From contig CALGNK010000017.1 in assembly GCA_937958695.1 (NCBI GenBank), forward strand, positions 8,225 through 72,224: DNA of 64,000 nt. Direction: 5' to 3'. Shown here one piece after another: positions 7,090 through 50,671 of this stretch; position 1 is the first letter of the stretch; every line of letters starts with the position of its first letter. The notes under the pieces were generated by a model. The model was not told the origin of the DNA. It did not search any database and saw only the letters and a list, made by a program, of their open reading frames with translations. This stretch comes from an uncultured bacterium (lineage in GTDB: Bacteria > DUMJ01). A program made the position numbers and the translations under genes.

Positions 7090-8097
7090 CTAAATTAGGC
7101 CTAATTTAATAAGAGATTCTGCTATCTGGACAGCATTTAACGCTGCTCCTTTTCTAATATTATCAGCAACTATCCACATAGCTATACCATTCTCTACCGA
7201 CTCATCTTTTCTTATCCTCCCTACAAATACTTCATCCTTACCCTCTGCCATTATAGGCATAGGATAAACAGCATCCTCCGGCTTATCTACAACGACTACA
7301 CCTGGAGCATTACTTAAGATCTCTCTTACCTCTTCTGGAGTTATAGGTAACTCTGTCTCTATATTTACACTCTCAGAGTGAGCCTTAAATACTGGAACCC
7401 TGACTGTGGTAGCACAGACCTTTATAGAGTGGTCATCTAGGATCTTTCTTGTCTCATTTACCATCTTCATCTCTTCTTTGGAGAAGCCATTAGGGTAGAA
7501 GATATCTATGTGTGGCAGTAGATTAAACGCTATCTGATGAGGATAGATTTTTGGAGATATAGGCTTTCCCTCAAGGATATTCTTTGTCTCTTCCCAAAGT
7601 TCTTCTACAGCTTCTCTTCCTGTGCCGGAGACAGACTGATATGTGGATACAACAATTCTCTTTATCTTAAATCTCTTATGCAGTGGAGCTAATGCTACTA
7701 CCATCTGAATAGTGGAACAGTTAGGATTAGCTATAATGCCTTTATGCTCTCTTAACTTCTCTTCGTTTACCTCTGGGACAACAAGAGGCACATCTGGTTC
7801 CATCCTAAAGGCATTACTGTTATCTATAACTACCGCTCCAGCTTTCACCGCTGATGGAGCAAGTTCTTTACTCCCCTTTTCTCCGGCAGAGAAAAGAGCA
7901 ATCTGAACCCCCTCAAAGCTGTTAGGTGTGGCTTCTTCTACTACTATATCTTGCCCCTTAAATCTAACTACAGTCCCTTGAGACCTGCTTGTAGCTAAAA
8001 GCCTTAGAGACTTAACTGGGAAATTTCTGGTTTCAAGTATAGAGACCATCTCTCTACCTACTAAACCGGTAGCTCCTACTACCGCTACATTATACAT
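7090..8097 (-). CDS. asd: Aspartate-semialdehyde dehydrogenase
   Basis: VGATGLVG, IANPNCST, STYQSVSG, RVPV..HSE, DNIRKGAALN. Confidence 0.96.
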   Translation of the reverse strand: MYNVAVVGATGLVGREMVSILETRNFPVKSLRLLATSRSQGTVVRFKGQDIVVEEATPNSFEGVQIALFSAGEKGSKELAPSAVKAGAVVIDNSNAFRMEPDVPLVVPEVNEEKLREHKGIIANPNCSTIQMVVALAPLHKRFKIKRIVVSTYQSVSGTGREAVEELWEETKNILEGKPISPKIYPHQIAFNLLPHIDIFYPNGFSKEEMKMVNETRKILDDHSIKVCATTVRVPVFKAHSESVNIETELPITPEEVREILSNAPGVVVVDKPEDAVYPMPIMAEGKDEVFVGRIRKDESVENGIAMWIVADNIRKGAALNAVQIAESLIKLGLI

Positions 8098-9008
8098 TCT
8101 TTCACCTCCAATAAAGCACCTTCGTTATCTATCTCTAGGTCAAAGATCTTAGATTCAATATTGTTTTTAAGGAGAATTAACTCTATATCTTCCTTTAACT
8201 GCTTTACTTTATCTATCTTACTAAGAACGGCCATAGATGGTCCAGATCCACTTATCACAACACCTAAGGCACCTCTAGATATAACCTCTTCCTTTATCTT
8301 CTTATAGTTTGGTATATACTTTGCCCTATATGGTTCATGAAGTTCATCTTCTAGTATTAATGGTAAGTCATTTAAGTCTTTAGTCAATAGAGAATTTATA
8401 AATATTCCCATCTTAGCTAGTCCTCTAATTGTTACATCAAGAGGGACACAATCTGGTATTAATTTTCTTGATGGCTCTGTCTTAACATTAAACTGAGGCA
8501 CTGCTACTATAACAGCTATCTCCTCTGGGAAAGGTATTTTCTTAACAAGAATCTCCCCATTATTTACAAGAGAGATTGTGCAACCTCCAAACATTGCAGG
8601 GGTTACATTATCAGGATGTCCTTCAAGTTCTACAGCATATCTTAGTAGAGTTTCTTTAGAGAGATTCTTGCCAGTAAGTGTATTTCCTACCATCAACCCT
8701 GCTACTATCGCAGAGGCACTGCTACCTAATCCTCTACATAATGGGATATTGCTAAAAATCTTTATGGCTAGATGAGGGATGGGTAGATTATACAATCTAT
8801 AAAAGTATTCTATAGCCTTTATAAAACTATTATTCTCTCTCTTAATAAGCTCTTCTCTACCTTCTCCTACTATTTCTATAGTATCTGGAGTATCTGGTTC
8901 TGTTACTCTTACTTCAAATATATTGTATAGCTTTAAAGCTAATCCCAAAGTATCAAATCCAACCCCTAGATTTGCAGTAGTAGCAGGAACTTTAGAAACT
9001 AACATCAT
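8085..9008 (-). CDS. thrB: Homoserine kinase
   Basis: [33 protein letters not shown]. Confidence 0.95.
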
Positions 9009-10048
9009 AGATAATCTGCCAACTCCTCTAAGTTAGGAGATATTACTATGGGTGGAGATGCAGTCTTTACTGCAGTATCCGGATCCTTTAATCCATGCCC
9101 AGTAAGTACACAGGTAACTATGCTTCCCTTCTCTATCTTTTCTTCTCTCACATACTTAATCAATCCAGCTATTGAAGCAGAAGATGCCGGCTCAACAAAG
9201 ATTCCTTCCATGCTGGCAACAAATTTATAGGCGTTTAGAATCTCTTCGTCAGAAACCATGTCTATAATACCACCTGAATCTCTAGCTGCGGATACTGCAG
9301 AATTCCAACTGGCAGGATTCCCTATCCTTATGGCAGTGGCTATTGTCTTTGGGTTCTCTATAGGATGACCTCTTACTATTGGAGCGGAGCCTTCAGCCTG
9401 AAATCCCATCATCTTTGGCAGTTTCTGAACCTTACCATTCTCTTTATACTCTTTAAATCCCTTCCAGTATGCTGTAATATTCCCAGCATTCCCTACTGGT
9501 ATGAAAAGATAATCTGGAGCTTCATTCAACACATCGCATATCTCAAATGCAGCGGTCTTCTGTCCTTCTATCCGGTATGGATTTATTGAGTTAACAATTG
9601 TAACTGGAAATCTTTTCCCTGCCTCTCTAACTAGATTTAAGGCAGAGTCGAAATTCCCCCTAACTGCTATCACCTGTGCACCATACATTAATGCTTGGGC
9701 AAGTTTACCAAGGGCTATAGCTCCTTCGGGGATAAGGACTATCGATTTTAATCCAGCTACGGCAGAATAGGCAGAAGCAGAAGCACTGGTATTTCCAGTA
9801 GAGGCACATATGACAGCTCTAGCTCCTTCTTCAACAGCCTTAGCAATAGCTACAACCATCCCTCTATCTTTAAAGGAACCTGTAGGATTCATTCCTTCAT
9901 ACTTTAGATATACCTTAACTCCTAATTCGTTAGATATATGACTTGCATAGATAAGTGGAGTGTTCCCTTCATAGAGTGTGATCTGAGGAGTTTTTTCATT
10001 TATGGGGAGAAATTCCCTATATTCTTTTAATACTCCACCCCATCTCAC
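9005..10048 (-). CDS. thrC: Threonine synthase
   Basis: [33 protein letters not shown]. Confidence 0.96.
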
Positions 10049-11346
10049 TCTTCAACAACTCCTTCTATCCTTAGCGTAGATTCAACCTTGTTTACCACAT
10101 CTAATCTCTCCATCTGAGACATAGCCTGTCTGAAAGGACCCTCTTGAGCAGTATGTGTGATAATAACTAATTCTGCCTGTCCTCTTGTATCAGGAACTTC
10201 CTTCTGGACAACACTAGCTATACTTATTCCTAGATCGCCAAAGACCTTAGCTATACCAGCTAATACACCTGCCCTATCAGGGACATTGAGTCTTATATAG
10301 TACCTTGTTTCAAGTTTTTCTATAGGTCTTATGGGTAGTTCTACTAGATTCGGTATATCAAACTGTCCACTAGATCCATCCCTTAGGGACCTTACAAGGT
10401 CACAAAGGTCAGATACTACAGCACTTGCGGTAGGTAAACTGCCAGCTCCCCTGCCATAGAGCATCATAGGTCCAACAGCATCACCAACTAGATAGATGCC
10501 GTTATATACACCTCTTACCGCAGCTAGCATAGAAGTTCTTGGAATCATTGTAGGATGAACTCTTAATTCTAATCCATCAGGGTGTTTTCTAGCTATAGCC
10601 AGGGATTTTATCTCATAACCAAGTTCGTGAGCATATTGAATATCTCTAATACTAATAATATCTATCCCTTCTGTATATATGTCTTCCGGTTTAACAAAAG
10701 CGTTAAATGCTATAGAGGAGAGTATGGTTATCTTGTAAGCGGAGTCTATCCCTTTAACATCATTAGCAGGATTTGGTTCGGCATAGCCTAGCCTCTGAGC
10801 CATAGCTAGAGCAGTTTCAAAGTCTTCTCCAACCTCTGACATTCTAGTTAAGATATAATTACTTGTTCCATTAAGAATTGCCCTAATCTCTTGGATACTA
10901 TTGGCAACTAAGTCTTCTCTTAGAACCCTTATAATAGGTATCCCAGCTCCGACACTTGCTTCAAAGTATATCTTTACACCCTTAGACCTTGCCATCTGAA
11001 AGAGTTTAAGACCATAAGAGGCGATAACATCCTTGTTAGCTGTTACAACATGTTTTCCTGCTTCTATAGCCTTACTGATAATTTTAAAGCCCTCTTCTTT
11101 ACCACCAGCAACTTCTATAATTACATCGATATCTGGAGAGTTGATAATATCTTCGACATCCTGAGTAAGTAATTCAGGCGGAACCTTAACCTGTCTCTCC
11201 TTTTTTATATCTCTTACACCTATCCTCTTTATATCTAGGATATTCCATGGGAAAGCCCTAACTTCTGCTTTCTTCTTTTCTAATACTCTCCAGACACCAC
11301 TACCTACATTACCAAGACCAATCATCCCTATATTTATATTTTTCAT
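10045..11346 (-). CDS. hom: Homoserine dehydrogenase with C-terminal ACT
   Basis: [43 protein letters not shown]. Confidence 0.95.
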
Positions 11347-44548: not shown

Positions 44549-45865
44549 CTACCTTACTCCTATACCCTCATATATAAAACCGTAACTTTTGAACCGTTTA
44601 GAGTCTAGGACATTTACTCCATCTAAGATTATGGGATTTTTCATTAAAGACCTTAATCTCTCTAAGTCGATCTCTTTAAATTCTTCCCAAGCGGTTAAAA
44701 TAATTAATGCATCAACGTTTTCTGTAGTCTCATATATATCATTATAGAGATTAATACCATCCAAATATTTTTTAGCCTCTTCAATTCCCTTAGGGTCATA
44801 AGCCTTTATATTCGCCCCGTTTTCTCTGAGTTTTCTAATGATTTCTATAGCCAAAGAATTTCTGACATCATTTGTATTTGGCTTAAACGTTAAACCTAAT
44901 ACCCCAATATCTCTATCTTTTATCGAGTCCCCTAGTAATCTTCTTAATTTATTTAAAACATATTCTGTCTGCTGTTTATTCTTTTCCAAAATAGATCTAA
45001 GATAGTTAGCCTTATATCCATATTTTTCTGCCATTTTTATAAAACCAATTAAGTCTTTAATAAGACAGGGCCCTCCAAATCCTATACCTGGAGAAAAATA
45101 ATCACCACCTATTCTCTTATCATACTTCATTCCTTCTATAACTTCTTTTACATTAGCACCTACATGGTCACATATATTAGCTATCTCATTTATAAAAGAA
45201 ATCCTAGCAGCCAAAAAGGCATTGGAGGCATATTTAATGAGTTGGGCGGTCACTGGACTAGTATGAACAATAGGAGCATTAAGAGGTAAAAAGATCTCTG
45301 CCAAAATTTTATCTACTTTCTCTTTATCAGCACCAATAACGATACGTGTGGGATTAAAGAAATCATACACCGCTCTACCCTCTCTTAAAAATTCTGGAAC
45401 CACAGCCAAGTCGTAATCTTCTCCCCTTATTCTCCCTTCCCTTTTTAAGATATCTTCCATAAGTTCCAAGGTCCCTATAGGGATAGTGCTCTTGATAGCT
45501 ATTATTTTATATCTATCCAGTGACTTTCCTATATCTTCCGTTGCTGACTCTACCTGTGAAAGGTCGACCTCTCCGTTTTCCTCTGATGGAGTACCAACAC
45601 ATAAAAAGATAATATCACTGGACTTTACCGCTAAAGCTATATCTATAGTAAAGTAAATCCTGCTAAGTCTCCTATTCTTATTTATAAGTTCGGATAGCCC
45701 ATCTTCGTATATTGGTACATACCCATTGTTTAAGCTATCTATCTTATCTCTGTCCACATCAGCACATATTACTTCATTACCCAATTCAGCTAGCCCAGCT
45801 CCGGTAGCCAAACCTACAAATCCTGTCCCTATAATAGATATTTTATATCTTTTCCCTGTCATCAC
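44549..45865 (-). CDS. ugd: UDP-glucose/GDP-mannose dehydrogenase family protein
   Basis: GTGFVG, CVGTP, KST, PEFLREG, KYASN, GFGGPCLIKD, FKPNTNDVR. Confidence 0.88.
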   Translation of the reverse strand: MMTGKRYKISIIGTGFVGLATGAGLAELGNEVICADVDRDKIDSLNNGYVPIYEDGLSELINKNRRLSRIYFTIDIALAVKSSDIIFLCVGTPSEENGEVDLSQVESATEDIGKSLDRYKIIAIKSTIPIGTLELMEDILKREGRIRGEDYDLAVVPEFLREGRAVYDFFNPTRIVIGADKEKVDKILAEIFLPLNAPIVHTSPVTAQLIKYASNAFLAARISFINEIANICDHVGANVKEVIEGMKYDKRIGGDYFSPGIGFGGPCLIKDLIGFIKMAEKYGYKANYLRSILEKNKQQTEYVLNKLRRLLGDSIKDRDIGVLGLTFKPNTNDVRNSLAIEIIRKLRENGANIKAYDPKGIEEAKKYLDGINLYNDIYETTENVDALIILTAWEEFKEIDLERLRSLMKNPIILDGVNVLDSKRFKSYGFIYEGIGVR

Positions 45866-45992
45866 TCAGTCTCCTTCTAAATTTATCATATAGCTCTCTA
45901 TAGTAGATCTATAGTTAATGACTGTATAATTATACAAAAAGTTCGACATTAGGGACAGTCCATAAAATGGAAAGTAACTAAAGCTTATATCT

Positions 45993-46616
45993 CTACCCCA
46001 AGAATTCTCTAACCATTCTTTTTAACTCTTCAGTGGCAGATTTTACATCCTCTTTAGAAACAACAGCTGATATAACTGCTATACCTTTTATTCCTGTTTT
46101 CATAACATCTCCAACATTATCTCTATTAATACCACCTATAGCAATTACAGGAAGAGAAGAGACTTTAACTATATCTTTTAACCCTTCTAAGCCTATAATT
46201 TTCACATCCTCTTTACTTGATGTCTCAAATATACTTTGAGCACTTATGTAATCTGCCCCTTCTTTCTCTGCCAACACAGCCTCTTCTGGAGAGGTAACAG
46301 AAGCTCCAATAATAAAATTATTGCCTGCTATCCTACGAGCTACAGATATAGGAAGGTCGTTCATCCCTAAATGTACCCCATCTGCTCCTACTGCTAGAGC
46401 TATGTCTAGTCTGTCATTTACTATAAAGAGAGCCTCATACTTCTTGGTAATCTCTCTCAGTTTTACTCCTATCCTATAGATCTCTCTTCCGCTTTTCTCT
46501 TTGTCTCTAAGCTGAATAACAGTAGCTCCACCTTTTAATGCCTCTTCTGCTAGAAAGAGATGACTTCTTCCCAGACCTATCTTTTCATCTGTAATAACAT
46601 AAAGACTTAAGTCCAT
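45993..46616 (-). CDS. thiE: Thiamine-phosphate synthase
   Basis: LYVITD, QLRDK, IVNDR, GVHLG.ND, T.SK, AIGGI. Confidence 0.94.
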   Translation of the reverse strand: MDLSLYVITDEKIGLGRSHLFLAEEALKGGATVIQLRDKEKSGREIYRIGVKLREITKKYEALFIVNDRLDIALAVGADGVHLGMNDLPISVARRIAGNNFIIGASVTSPEEAVLAEKEGADYISAQSIFETSSKEDVKIIGLEGLKDIVKVSSLPVIAIGGINRDNVGDVMKTGIKGIAVISAVVSKEDVKSATEELKRMVREFLG

Positions 46617-47431
46617 AATTTCACATTCCCTTCTTTCATTATATCTTCACCGCTTATTAAAGACAATTCATCAAATAAATGTAATCTAAAACTTCCTGGA
46701 CCTCTGGCATTTTCTTCTGCTCTTTTAGCAGAGAGTTTAAAAGCTATTAGACCAGATATAGATGCTATCAACGGATCTTCTTTTATACCTAATACAGCAG
46801 ATATTACAGAGCCAGCTATACAGCCGGAACCGGTGATATTTCTTAACATATTGCTACCTCCTCTTACTGAAAATACCTCTTCCCCGTTCGAAATAAAATC
46901 CTCCTCTCCTGTAGCTATAACTATAGTATTAAACCTATTTGCTAATGTCTTTACTATCTCTTTAAGATCCAAGCTAGTATTACCTACAGCATCTACCCCT
47001 CTAATCATTCCTGAATTTCCTGCTAAAGCCATTATTTCTCCACTATTACCCTTAATAACAGATACTTTATATTCTCTTAATAAGGTATCTACTACATAAT
47101 TCCTATAAGGAGTAGCCCCATATCCAACCGGGTCTAATAAAATTGGTATATTCTTCTTATTTGCCATTTCCATTGCTTTCTCCATAGCAGAGAAGATTTC
47201 AGACGATGGGATCCCTATATTTATAAGAAGGGCGTCTGCTATAGAACACATATCCCCAGATTCCTCAGGGTATAAAGCCATAACAGGACTTGCACCAATA
47301 GCTAAAGTAGCATGCGCCTGTTCAGGCATGGCAACAAAATTAGTAATATGATGGACTAAGGGCCTAGTCTCTTTCATCTTATCCCAAAATCTCTGTCCTT
47401 CCTTAAGTATAAATCTTATTCTCTCTTCCAT
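46607..47431 (-). CDS. thiM: Hydroxyethylthiazole kinase
   Basis: PLVHHITNFV, GASPVM, LDPVG, KGNSGE, ITGSGC. Confidence 0.93.
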   Translation of the reverse strand: MEERIRFILKEGQRFWDKMKETRPLVHHITNFVAMPEQAHATLAIGASPVMALYPEESGDMCSIADALLINIGIPSSEIFSAMEKAMEMANKKNIPILLDPVGYGATPYRNYVVDTLLREYKVSVIKGNSGEIMALAGNSGMIRGVDAVGNTSLDLKEIVKTLANRFNTIVIATGEEDFISNGEEVFSVRGGSNMLRNITGSGCIAGSVISAVLGIKEDPLIASISGLIAFKLSAKRAEENARGPGSFRLHLFDELSLISGEDIMKEGNVKLWT

Positions 47432-48171
47432 CTTTTCATCACCTCCAAAAATGAATAATCTGTTTCATCAACATTTAAAGGTGTTATAGCTATATAATTT
47501 TCTCTTAATACCGAATCTTCCGTTTCTTTTTCTTCTTCTCTTAATGGTACTCCGCCTATCCAGAAATATTTTTTACCGTAAGGGTCAAGGACAGTATGAA
47601 CCCTATCTTTATATCTTCTCCTGCCCAGTTTTACAAATTTTATTCCTTTTATCTCTTCTATAGGGACATTTGGGACATTAATATTTAAAAAGACCCCTGT
47701 AGGAAGAGGATTATTCCTAATATAATCTACAATTTTTCTTGTTACCTTGACCGCTCCTTCGTAGAAGTAACCTCTATCTCCATACTCTAAAGAGATTCCT
47801 ATAGAAGGAATTCCTGAAAATGTTGCCTCTCTACAAGCTCCAATTGTCCCAGAAAATCTTATATCATCTCCTACGTTAGGTTCATCGTTTATTCCAGAAA
47901 TAACTATGTCTAGATCCTTAACTAACATGTCTATTGCAAGGATAACACAGTCTGCTGGAGTTCCAAATACTGAAAAAGCCTTTTTTTCACCCAAAGAAAG
48001 GCTAACCTCTTCAACCCTTAAAGGCTTATCAAATGTTACCCCTCCACCTACCCCAACTAGTCTATAGTGTGGTGCTACAACATAAACCTCATCCGTCTTT
48101 GAGAATTCTACAATAAGCTCTCTAATTCCCCTTGCAGATATACCATCATCGTTTGTAATAAGGATTCTCAT
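47416..48171 (-). CDS. surE: SurE-family phosphatase, divergent
   Basis: ILITNDDG, VVAP, GTPADCV, SGIN, SGT, LNINVP, ITPL. Confidence 0.88.
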   Translation of the reverse strand: MRILITNDDGISARGIRELIVEFSKTDEVYVVAPHYRLVGVGGGVTFDKPLRVEEVSLSLGEKKAFSVFGTPADCVILAIDMLVKDLDIVISGINDEPNVGDDIRFSGTIGACREATFSGIPSIGISLEYGDRGYFYEGAVKVTRKIVDYIRNNPLPTGVFLNINVPNVPIEEIKGIKFVKLGRRRYKDRVHTVLDPYGKKYFWIGGVPLREEEKETEDSVLRENYIAITPLNVDETDYSFLEVMKRWKRE

Positions 48172-48968
48172 ACAATACCTCTTATATTATGATATAAGGG
48201 GCCAAAGCCCCTTCCTATGTTATTAGGAGCTTCCCTTATAGCTATAGTTATATACTGCTTAGCCTTTTTAACTGCGTTGTAAAGATCTTCTCCTATAGCT
48301 AAACATGCTGTTATAGAAGAGGAAAAGGTGCATCCTGTTCCATGAGTATTCTTTGAGGGTATTCTTTCCTCTTTAAAAAGATAGAACTCTACTCCATCGT
48401 ACAGGACATCGGTACTTACACCTTCTTCTAAATGTCCTCCTTTTATAAGCACATTTCTTGCCCCCATCTCCTTTATCTCTCTTGCAGAAATCTTCATATC
48501 CTCGACACTTTCTATCTTTACACCACTAATTACCTCTGCTTCCGGTATATTAGGAGTTATAAGAAAGGCAAGCGGGATAATTAACTCTATAAATCTTTTC
48601 TCTGCAGACTCCTTTAAAAGTCTAGCTTTACTCTTAGAAACCATAACTGGATCTACAACAATCTTTTCTACCTTATAAAAACTTAATCTATCTACAACTG
48701 TTTCTATTATTTCTTCATTGGATAGCATACCAGTCTTAACAGCATCTACTCCGATATCTTCAAAGATAGAGTCTATCTGTAGGGCTATTATCTCCTTTGG
48801 AAGGTCATAAATAGCTTTGACTTCTAGAGTATTCTGGGCTGTGATAGAAGTAATAACTGACATACCATAGACATCAAAAGCCTGAAATGTTTTTAAATCC
48901 GCCTGAATACCAGCTCCTCCGCTTGAGTCTGAACCGGCAATAGTTAAAGCCTTACCTTTATAATTCAT
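48168..48968 (-). CDS. thiD: Hydroxymethylpyrimidine/phosphomethylpyrimidine kinase
   Basis: IAGSDSSGGAGIQADLK, KTGML, DPVM, TPN, KGGH, THGTGC. Confidence 0.95.
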   Translation of the reverse strand: MNYKGKALTIAGSDSSGGAGIQADLKTFQAFDVYGMSVITSITAQNTLEVKAIYDLPKEIIALQIDSIFEDIGVDAVKTGMLSNEEIIETVVDRLSFYKVEKIVVDPVMVSKSKARLLKESAEKRFIELIIPLAFLITPNIPEAEVISGVKIESVEDMKISAREIKEMGARNVLIKGGHLEEGVSTDVLYDGVEFYLFKEERIPSKNTHGTGCTFSSSITACLAIGEDLYNAVKKAKQYITIAIREAPNNIGRGFGPLYHNIRGIV

Positions 48969-48971
48969 AAC

Positions 48972-49075
48972 ATCACTCCCTTCGCTAGTATTACCTAGAT
49001 CAGGTTCAACGGGTTGGAATCCTAAGATTCCTCTCAGCCTAATCGCAAAAAACTTGCTTTCAGCACCCCGGTGAT
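48972..49075 (-). ncRNA. TPP riboswitch
   Basis: Minus strand: ATCAC-CGGGGTGC...GCTGAGA-GGAATC/GATTCC-AACCC...ACCTGATCTAGGTAATACTAGCGAAGGGA-GTGAT, directly upstream of thiD. Confidence 0.95.
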
Positions 49076-49090
49076 CCTTATCTTAAGAAT

Positions 49091-49119
49091 ATTATAAGAC
49101 TTAGGATATACTAAGTCAA
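49091..49119 (-). promoter_or_regulatory. Promoter of thi operon
   Basis: TTGACT-N17-TATAAT about 15 nt upstream of the riboswitch. Confidence 0.75.
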
Positions 49120-49209
49120 GCGATTTGCAAGCAAATTGTTTAATATATTGATATCTGTAGTAGAATAAAAGAGGCATATTAGACATTAAGAATTAGGAGG
49201 ATATAGTTT

Positions 49210-49497
49210 ATGAGTATAACGAGAGAAGTACTTGCATATGGTGGAAATCTTATGCTTACCAGAAACACTTTTACTACAAAGGGAACAAAGGCAGATACTC
49301 ATACTCATTATCATGAGCAGATAAGCTATATATTATCTGGTAGTTTTAAGTTTATATTAGATAAAGAGGAAAGAATATTAAACTTTGGTGATAGTCTTTA
49401 TATACCAGCCAATATGCCTCATAGTGCGGAGGCGCTAGAGGATAATTCTATTGTTTTAGACGTCTTTACACCGCAGAGAGAAGATTTCTTAAGATAA
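49210..49497 (+). CDS. Cupin domain protein (KdgF-like)
   Basis: HTHYHEQISYILSG, GDSLYIPAN.PH, LDVFTPQREDFL. Confidence 0.8.
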   Translation: MSITREVLAYGGNLMLTRNTFTTKGTKADTHTHYHEQISYILSGSFKFILDKEERILNFGDSLYIPANMPHSAEALEDNSIVLDVFTPQREDFLR

Positions 49498-49504
49498 GGA
49501 GGGT

Positions 49505-50671
49505 TTGATGAAGAGAAATATCAAAACCAATATAGAACATTACGGAGAGGATTACCAGAGATTTTTAGGTGCTATTGCTCCACCAATATTTGAGGCATCA
49601 AACTTTGCCTTCTCTTCTTATGAAGAACTAGAAGAGCATCATAAAGGGAAAATAGACAAGTTTGTATATACTAGGGGTGGAAATCCTACTATTAAGCTCC
49701 TAGAAGATAAGATTGCCATGTTGGAAAAAGGGGAAGAATGTAGAGCTTTCTCTTCAGGGATGGGGGCTATAACTTCTAGTATACTATCTTTAGTAAAATC
49801 AGGAGACCATATAATATGTCTAAGAGGAATATATGGCCCTACTTATAACTTTATCTATAATTACCTAAAGAGATTCGATATCTCTTCAACATTTGTAGAT
49901 GGAAGAAATCCGATGGATATAAAATCTGCCATAAAACCTAACACTAAACTTATATATCTAGAAAGTCCAAATACCTTTCTGTTTGAAGTTTTTGATCTAA
50001 GGGCTATAGCCAATATAGCAAAAGAAAATGGTATATATACAGTAATAGACAACACATGGGCTACTCCATATTTTCAAAATCCTATAGATTTTGGGATAGA
50101 TATAGTAGTTCATTCTGCTAGTAAATATCTTGGTGGACATAGTGATGTTGTTGCAGGGGTGGTTGTAACAAATAAAAGATTAATAGAAAGTATAAATAAA
50201 AATCTTCATCTACTTGGAGGAATAATAGGACCTTTTGAAGCATGGTTGATTCTAAGAGGTTTAAGGTCCTTACCGGCTAGGATGGAATTGCATCAAAGTA
50301 ATGCTATAAAGATAGCTGAATTTTTGAGTGAACATCCAAGAGTAATAAAAGTAAACTATCCTGGACTTAAGACAAATCCATATTATCAATTGGCCATTTC
50401 ACAGATGAGAGGTTTTAGCGGTTTGATGAGTTTTGAGATAGAGGGAGGAGAAAGGGAACTGAAAAGGTTTATAAATAGTTTAAAGATCTTTACTATAGCA
50501 GTAAGCTGGGGAGGGTATGAAAGTTTGGTGATACCTGGGAAACATGTATTTAAAGATAGAGTCGATGTGATAGATCCGTCTACTAATTTGATAAGAATCT
50601 CAGTAGGATTAGAAGATGCAGATGACTTAATAACAGACTTAGATAATGCATTAAAGATTGCGTTTAGCTAA
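49505..50671 (+). CDS. PLP trans-sulfuration enzyme family (cystathionine gamma-synthase / C-S lyase-like)
   Basis: YTRGGNPT, SSGMGAI, LESP, DNTWATP, HSASKYLGGHSD, SWGG.ESL, RISVGLE. Confidence 0.88.
   Translation: MMKRNIKTNIEHYGEDYQRFLGAIAPPIFEASNFAFSSYEELEEHHKGKIDKFVYTRGGNPTIKLLEDKIAMLEKGEECRAFSSGMGAITSSILSLVKSGDHIICLRGIYGPTYNFIYNYLKRFDISSTFVDGRNPMDIKSAIKPNTKLIYLESPNTFLFEVFDLRAIANIAKENGIYTVIDNTWATPYFQNPIDFGIDIVVHSASKYLGGHSDVVAGVVVTNKRLIESINKNLHLLGGIIGPFEAWLILRGLRSLPARMELHQSNAIKIAEFLSEHPRVIKVNYPGLKTNPYYQLAISQMRGFSGLMSFEIEGGERELKRFINSLKIFTIAVSWGGYESLVIPGKHVFKDRVDVIDPSTNLIRISVGLEDADDLITDLDNALKIAFS

Follow-up and report, generated by a model that had tools for sequence, protein, structure and literature searches.

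A divergent SurE paralogue inside a TPP riboswitch-led thiamine operon of an uncultured bacterium: a candidate thiamine-monophosphate phosphatase

In organisms that form thiamine diphosphate (ThDP) with a thiamine pyrophosphokinase (TPK) instead of ThiL, the conversion of thiamine monophosphate (ThMP) to free thiamine is the step of the synthesis for which enzyme assignments are poorest. According to PMC5627462 (citing Hasnain 2016, Biochem J 473:157), a few bacteria dephosphorylate ThMP before TPK acts, and HAD-family enzymes do so. For Staphylococcus aureus, PMC2766623 describes a tenA-thiM-thiD-thiE operon behind a THI box, a TPK, no ThiL, and a GTPase encoded beside tpk that dephosphorylates ThMP (TMP). 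As far as these two sources go, the bacterial step is tied only to HAD enzymes and to this promiscuous GTPase (PMC5627462, PMC2766623). Catalysis in the SurE family is thought to use a metal-activated water, for which the DD motif and a conserved Asn form the metal and water site, the Asn coordinating the metal and orienting the water (PMC8475336). The present report concerns a SurE-family gene, surE2, that lies within a thiamine operon of an uncultured bacterium of the GTDB lineage DUMJ01 (assembly GCA_937958695.1, contig CALGNK010000017.1, positions 8,225 to 72,224); the whole 64,000-nucleotide (64 kb) stretch that was analysed is called the window. The product of this operon copy, SurE2, is predicted from its genomic context to be a SurE-fold ThMP phosphatase feeding TPK, a reading that we favour on balance.

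The operon is on the minus strand, and its elements, in positions within the window, are the following.

49091..49119, minus strand: sigma-70-like promoter TTGACT-17-TATAAT (consensus scan, 11/12 matches; a pattern match only, no proof of function)
48960..49080, minus strand: thiamine pyrophosphate (TPP) riboswitch aptamer, RF00059 (79.1 bits, above the gathering score of 54.3; the match spans all 105 model positions, 1-105)
48168..48968, minus strand: thiD, kinase of hydroxymethylpyrimidine (HMP) and its phosphate (HMP-P) (PF08543, 1.4e-98; TIGR00097, 350.9 bits, cut-off 204.95)
47416..48171, minus strand: surE2, divergent SurE paralogue, predicted ThMP phosphatase (PF01975, 7.4e-53; TIGR00087, 207.2, cut-off 135.1)
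46607..47431, minus strand: thiM, hydroxyethylthiazole kinase (PF02110, 7.2e-80; NF006830, 297.9 bits, cut-off 180)
45993..46616, minus strand: thiE, thiamine-phosphate synthase (PF02581, 1.7e-63; TIGR00693, 212.9 bits, cut-off 145.1)

The order TPP riboswitch-thiD-surE2-thiM-thiE, with successive overlaps of 4, 16 and 10 nt, had been read from the letters in a first-pass annotation and is borne out by the RF00059 match and by the coordinates of the open reading frames (ORFs). Because the ORFs overlap in this manner, thiD-surE2-thiM-thiE almost certainly form a single, translationally coupled transcript. The aptamer is the sole Rfam match in the window, and the promoter-like sequence found by the consensus scan sits directly upstream of it. 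Its 3' end runs across a Shine-Dalgarno-like GGGAG and stops 8 nt before the thiD ATG, an arrangement that would fit riboswitch control at the thiD ribosome-binding site.

The need for a phosphatase at this place in metabolism follows from the other thiamine genes of the genome, for which an assembly of 2.09 Mb in 57 contigs, 98% complete, was available. A second TPP riboswitch (contig C45:30789-32096; L004:1501-2823) leads thiT, the S component of an energy-coupling factor (ECF) thiamine transporter (PF09515; TIGR02357 140.2 bits, cut-off 108.45), and the gene of a TPK (TIGR01378 158.2 bits, cut-off 76.4); a YjeF-C-like ORF, read by eye, converges on this thiT-TPK pair. TPK was also present in 7/7 genomes of a phylum sample, which comprised seven species genomes from two genera; being related to each other, these amount to about one observation. 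A ThiL above the TIGR01379 cut-off (184.15 bits) was found neither in the genome nor in any of the seven (0/7), so that the choice between thiN (TPK) and thiL, which the first-pass annotation had wished to see settled, falls to thiN.

Five matches to the ThiL model do occur in the genome, and they belong to HypE, PurM, PurL (two) and an AIRS/AIRS_C orphan. The genuine HypE scores 467 bits to hypE and 102 to thiL, and the two PurL matches lie within one 732-aa frame (assigned by reading, not by a profile scan). The orphan, a protein of 362 aa at C17:821-1669 (L006:755-1843, minus), some 7 kb ahead of the window, scores 117 to hypE, 92 to thiL and 82 to selD, each under its cut-off, and its thiL score is thus lower than that of the genuine HypE. 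Among solved structures its nearest matches are HypE-type proteins at 84 bits, with ThiL at 54 bits, and an ESM Atlas query returned 'AIR synthase family protein' only. The gene is present in 6/7 phylum genomes, divergent from an adjoining ECF riboflavin-type S component. With such scores it is unlikely to be a ThiL.

The genome further contains thiC (C37:20702-21970, 659 bits), upstream of which there is no RF00059 match, the two TPP riboswitches already mentioned being the only ones. For ThiG and Thi4 the genome gave no genuine match, only partial ones at superfamily level (34 and 28 bits). Since ThiC is present and ThiG/Thi4 was not found, the organism appears to make the pyrimidine moiety (HMP-P) and to salvage the thiazole, for which it would be auxotrophic. 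Its only recognisable ThDP-forming enzyme is TPK, which requires free thiamine. Since ThiD, ThiM and ThiE would together yield ThMP, and the only recognisable ThDP maker needs free thiamine, a ThMP phosphatase would be required. The only gene of the operon that has no assigned role in the pathway is surE2, and it belongs to a phosphatase family.

We infer ThMP to be the substrate of SurE2. In the pathway that can be envisaged, ThiC would make HMP-P, ThiD would turn this into HMP pyrophosphate (HMP-PP), ThiM would phosphorylate salvaged thiazole, and ThiE would couple HMP-PP and thiazole phosphate to ThMP. SurE2, acting as a metal-dependent phosphomonoesterase, would hydrolyse ThMP to free thiamine, which TPK would pyrophosphorylate to ThDP; ThDP would in turn switch the operon off via the riboswitch that covers the ribosome-binding site of thiD.

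Sequence and fold both place SurE2 in the SurE family. It scores 179.6 bits against PF01975 (cut-off 22.1) and lies above the cut-offs of both NCBIfam equivalogs for '5'/3'-nucleotidase SurE', NF001490 (237.1, cut-off 233) and, as listed above, TIGR00087. An AlphaFold2 model (pLDDT 94.1, pTM 0.89) gave in Foldseek top matches that are all SurE structures, with T. maritima SurE (1ilv_A) at TMq 0.90 and rmsd 1.9; the best PDB match by sequence is 2wqk_A (4.9e-50), and the ESM Atlas returned generic SurE clusters only. With the canonical 5'/3'-nucleotidases (E. coli SurE/UmpG; T. maritima 1ILV/1J9J; Aquifex aeolicus 2WQK) it shares the Pfam family, the fold, the DD motif and the conserved Asn. 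Yet it fails the canonical motif features, and the automatic name '5'/3'-nucleotidase' is therefore not to be trusted.

A canonical SurE is present as well. The second of the two PF01975 matches in the assembly, on contig C5 at L001:1480-2259, carries the canonical motifs SPDRQRSAGGHAIT, SGINHGANVG and TYSGT, and stands in the order HD-domain ORF, YmdB, SpoVS, SurE, followed by an LptA-like gene; the two SurE proteins are 38% identical. With the second, canonical surE that the first-pass annotation had asked about located elsewhere in a 98% complete genome, SurE2 is an extra copy. Both SurE types occur in 7/7 phylum genomes, and so does thiD-surE2-thiM-thiE in the same order. Within the phylum SurE2 is under purifying selection like its operon neighbours, with a median pairwise ratio of nonsynonymous to synonymous substitutions (dN/dS) of 0.10, next to 0.086 for ThiD, 0.118 for ThiM and 0.053 for ThiE, values that are rough as dS exceeds 1.

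The motif changes that had been noticed at first pass are real (APHYRLVGVGGGVT, SGINDEPNVGDDIRFSGT). They were examined in an alignment of 71 canonical rows with 72 rows of what is here called the DEPN clade, the SurE proteins with SGINDEPNxGDDxR, and this alignment bears out that NDDG and SGIN are kept and that the DEPN after SGIN and the RFSGT sequence are changed. Common to both sets are N7, D8, D9, G10, S92, G93, I94, N95, N99, S107, T109, E115, S127, N163 and N165. Within the clade N7-D8-D9-G10 is kept in 72/72 rows, and N95 (of S92-G93-I94-N95) and N99 are each kept in 71/72. SurE2 itself has V39 and G43 where canonical rows have Ser/Thr39 and His43 (S-x-x-x-H). The earlier statement that the usual Ser is absent holds for the window protein (Val39) and its near kin, of which Val39 is typical; it does not hold for the clade as a whole, since position 39, which is S in 65 and T in 6 of the 71 canonical rows, is still S or T in 48/72 clade rows (T25, S23, H8, I5, A4, V3, others). 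The positions at which the two sets differ are these.

Position 40: canonical A in 56/71; clade G in 72/72
Position 43: canonical H in 70/71; clade G in 63/72, His in 0/72
Position 47: canonical L or M; clade F in 72/72
Position 96: canonical variable; clade D in 69/72
Position 97: canonical G in 68/71; clade E in 70/72
Position 102: canonical variable; clade D in 71/72
Position 105: canonical variable; clade R in 71/72
Position 106: canonical Y in 70/71; clade F in 48 and L in 22 of 72
Position 111: canonical S or A; clade G in 72/72
Position 113: canonical A in 71/71; clade C in 70/72

The canonical motifs SGINxGxN and xYSGT are accordingly absent from SurE2, with E97 in place of G and F/L in place of Y106. 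Unlike the canonical enzymes, it thus has Gly, Glu, Phe/Leu and Cys where these have His43, Gly97, Tyr106 and Ala113, it has the new, near-invariant D96, D102 and R105, and it is encoded within a thiamine operon instead of in a housekeeping context. All changed positions are in or beside the three motifs that bear the catalytic residues, and D96, E97, D102, R105, F47 and C113, together with the loss of H43 and Y106, would be expected to reshape the substrate pocket.

SurE2 also differs from canonical SurE in belonging to a separate clade. Of the best 120 homologues (out of 7726 with E ≤ 0.001 among 8000 candidates), 49 carry SGINDEPNxGDDxR and lack S-x-x-x-H. A FastTree phylogeny of 150 rows placed all DEPN-type rows, as well as the loci collected subsequently, in a single 72-row group with support 100. 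In a quick IQ-TREE search with 69 rows (37 of the clade, 7 of its sister group and 25 canonical, the last mostly random picks) the branch of the clade had an SH-aLRT of 99, and again 99 after the 37 motif-bearing alignment columns had been dropped. The surE homologues of thi operons do therefore form one clade, as had been proposed for checking. Within it, a subclade B (Atribacterota-like rows, Clostridiisalibacter and Oceanotoga) has support 99; the remainder, 'A', with the window protein, was not resolved as a clade by IQ-TREE.

The clade is small and rare. A search of a 5.8-billion-cluster collection with the clade profile listed 50 proteins at 336-428 bits, below which there is a gap and then the sister group, which reaches no more than 310 bits and has canonical motifs (P0284 to P0286 inspected). 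In a library of 1.84 billion representatives, 2 of the best 150 matches are of the DEPN type (P0044, P0048), and a DNA pattern for the DEPN motif was found in 0/144 genomes of other families, 0/5 further genomes and 0/401 genomes of the phylum of Romboutsia. The sources of clade members are named 'bacterium', 'Actinomycetota bacterium' (a metagenome-assembled genome, MAG), 'Atribacterota bacterium' (MAG), Clostridiisalibacter paucivorans and Oceanotoga.

For the context of surE2 outside the phylum, 24 metagenome loci were obtained by a contig scan with the back-translated DEPN motif, and thi genes were located in them by tblastn with the window proteins. At least one of ThiD, ThiM and ThiE adjoins SurE2 in 20/24 of these loci, many of the 20 being near-copies of each other or of the phylum genomes. 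The arrangements, as identified with Pfam and Rfam, are given below.

TPP-thiD-surE2-thiM-thiE: window type
TPP-cytX-like permease-thiD-surE2-thiM-thiE: L109, L128, L116
TPP-thiD-tenA-surE2-thiM-thiE-permease: L114
tenA-surE2-thiM-thiE: L111, L124
TPP-thiW-thiD-thiE-thiM-surE2: L118, subclade B
thiW-thiE-thiM-surE2: L115, subclade B
thiM-surE2: L119, subclade B, identical to the Atribacterota protein P0050

In every thi-linked arrangement thiM is the immediate neighbour of surE2. The proteins of L115 and L118 are far from those of the window (ThiM and ThiE 36-37% and 45% identical, SurE2 48%), and the genes downstream differ between these two loci, which indicates that the thi-surE2 block has been kept across rearrangements. 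As a control, 80 loci were collected by a contig scan with patterns common to all SurE; all proved canonical, with 0 of the DEPN type, their median length was 12.7 kb, and 50/80 extend for the whole 6 kb to either side. A match to ThiD, ThiM or ThiE (E ≤ 1e-5) occurs in 0/80 of them. The linkage that the first-pass annotation could see in one genome only thus recurs in all seven phylum genomes and in most of the metagenome loci, where the gene order varies and one of the other orders has a TPP riboswitch of its own.

How the locus relates to the described ways of releasing thiamine from ThMP can now be stated. The HAD enzymes that dephosphorylate ThMP in plants and in bacteria lacking ThiL have the same role as that predicted for SurE2, namely to provide TPK with thiamine, and the features expected around such an enzyme are found here, i.e. 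ThiE and TPK are present, ThiL over its cut-off is not, and the gene is clustered with thi genes behind a shared TPP riboswitch. Their fold and mechanism are unrelated to those of SurE; HAD phosphatases work via an aspartyl-phosphate intermediate, and SurE2 does not have the HAD fold. SurE2 would by this analogy be a non-orthologous replacement of the HAD enzymes, the genes of which were reportedly also found through clustering or fusion with thi genes. The likeness to S. aureus lies in a thi operon behind a THI box, TPK without ThiL, and an operon-linked hydrolase that accepts TMP; that hydrolase is unlike SurE2 in that it is of another protein family, has broad substrates, and is linked to tpk and not to thiM/thiE, and the riboswitch binding on its operon is weak (PMC2766623). 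In the literature searched, the coverage of which leaves out most subscription journals, nothing was found that places a SurE-family enzyme in thiamine metabolism; within that scope the first-pass opinion that a SurE-fold ThMP phosphatase has no prior description is upheld.

A wider reading, to which we give an even chance, is that the DEPN clade as a whole is a dedicated SurE-fold ThMP phosphatase and as such a third independently evolved solution for ThMP-to-thiamine conversion, after the HAD enzymes and the promiscuous GTPase-type hydrolases. Its occurrence would be limited to a small number of uncultured lineages, thermophilic or anaerobic (the seven-species phylum, Atribacterota and a few others), and recognition of the cationic thiamine moiety would fall to its acidic patch (D96, E97, D102) and R105.

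Several observations weigh against a ThMP phosphatase. Because most thi-linked loci are kin, the independent observations of linkage number not 27 but some three arrangements, spread over two subclades. Four of the 24 clade loci (L108, L122, L125, L127) have no thi neighbour, so that the DEPN clade can persist without adjacent thi genes, and in such lineages SurE2 may be the sole SurE. Directly upstream of surE2, L127 carries a long CRISPR array (7143-10541, with Rfam CRISPR-DR7 repeats) and a Cas4-like gene (10709-11323), at the place taken by thiW-thiE-thiM in the syntenic L115; as the two loci are alike downstream of surE2 (tRNA-GNAT-PspC-pyruvate kinase), thi genes have been gained or lost beside a resident surE2. 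In L122, L108 and L125, surE2 is followed by a Ysc84-domain gene, the loci L108 and L125 being short. Upstream of thiW in L115 no TPP riboswitch was detected, either at the gathering threshold or at E ≤ 1, and a fusion of SurE with a thi domain was seen in 0/15 longer homologues (proteins of 441-2000 aa). The HypE-like AIRS orphan may, unlikely as this is on its scores, be a divergent ThMP kinase, in which case the pathway gap would disappear. Finally, the Ser at position 39 is reportedly a metal ligand in the SurE structures of T. maritima and Salmonella, and Val39 in its place might weaken metal binding.

Among the alternatives, the one that survives best, unlikely as we hold it to be, is that SurE2 is a thiamine-related phosphatase with another substrate, such as HMP-P, HMP-PP, thiazole phosphate, ThDP, thiamine triphosphate (ThTP), or phosphorylated forms of damaged or analogue compounds, in a house-cleaning or pool-balancing function. 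The evidence of operon and clade is the same for such a phosphatase as for one acting on ThMP, the constant adjacency of thiM would also fit a role directed at thiazole phosphate, and the enzyme that dephosphorylates TMP in S. aureus hydrolyses TPP too (PMC2766623). However, hydrolysis of the products of ThiD or ThiM within their own operon would be futile, and none of these activities fills the gap left by TPK without ThiL, as ThMP hydrolysis would.

It is improbable, in our view, that SurE2 has the ordinary activity of a broad-range nucleotidase or of a short-chain polyphosphatase and rides in the thi operon with no role specific to thiamine, with ThMP being handled by some unlinked, promiscuous phosphatase. 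Such an enzyme would be in line with the NCBIfam equivalog scores given above, with the catalytic core kept in SurE2, with the four clade members that are not linked to thi genes, and with the activities of characterised SurE enzymes, which are nucleotidases and exopolyphosphatases (PMC8475336). Against this, the linkage has been kept over rearranged operons and two subclades, compared with its absence from all 80 canonical loci, a canonical SurE coexists with SurE2 in each of the seven phylum genomes, and residues beside the catalytic motifs are replaced throughout the clade. That SurE2 has lost or changed its catalysis (Ser39 to Val, His43 to Gly) and has a binding or regulatory role towards thiamine phosphates or neighbouring enzymes is very improbable, as, although Ser/Thr39 is gone in the window lineage and His43 in 72/72 clade rows, D8, D9, N95, N99, S107 and T109 are each kept in 70-72 of 72 rows, position 39 is still S/T in two-thirds of them, and the predicted structure shows, with high confidence, the SurE fold intact.

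A SurE-fold ThMP phosphatase, which the first-pass annotation had proposed, is favoured by every computational check suggested there, with ThMP as the presumed substrate on grounds of gene content and context. If true, this would be the first function in a cofactor pathway for the SurE family, whose members are so far known as nucleotidases and polyphosphatases (PMC8475336). It would correct the annotation '5'/3'-nucleotidase SurE', which pipelines will propagate because SurE2 passes the NCBIfam equivalog cut-offs, and it would complete the reconstruction of the thiamine pathway for Atribacterota and for a phylum about which little is known. As naturally occurring paralogues within a single genome, the two SurE proteins would also lend themselves to the study of how about ten positions set specificity in this family.

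Some minor observations concern the surroundings of surE2 and its homologues. Divergent from the promoter region of the thi operon, a small cupin and a pyridoxal phosphate-dependent enzyme of Cys/Met metabolism are encoded at 49210-50671 of the window (plus strand). On the side of thiE, a UDP-glucose/GDP-mannose dehydrogenase gene follows at its 3' end on the same strand (44549-45865, minus), as it likewise does in metagenome contig L117:8028-9341, and a simple scan gave no terminator-like site between the two genes. Public DNA runs containing window positions 45900-49200 are labelled as marine and hot-spring metagenomes, three runs of one study having at least half of the words, and no RNA runs are listed among them. 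Next to the DEPN-type surE of L122, which is not thi-linked, there is an ORF (L122:1826-2791) of an IS200-like Y1 transposase domain and a DnaA C-terminal helix-turn-helix. In the syntenic loci L115 (6863-8962) and L127 (584-2683) a cluster of ATP synthase beta, epsilon and 'ATPase_gene1' is located 3' of pyruvate kinase, and the ATP synthase beta of these Atribacterota-like contigs has at most 65% identity (72% over a partial match) to 150 diverse genomes.

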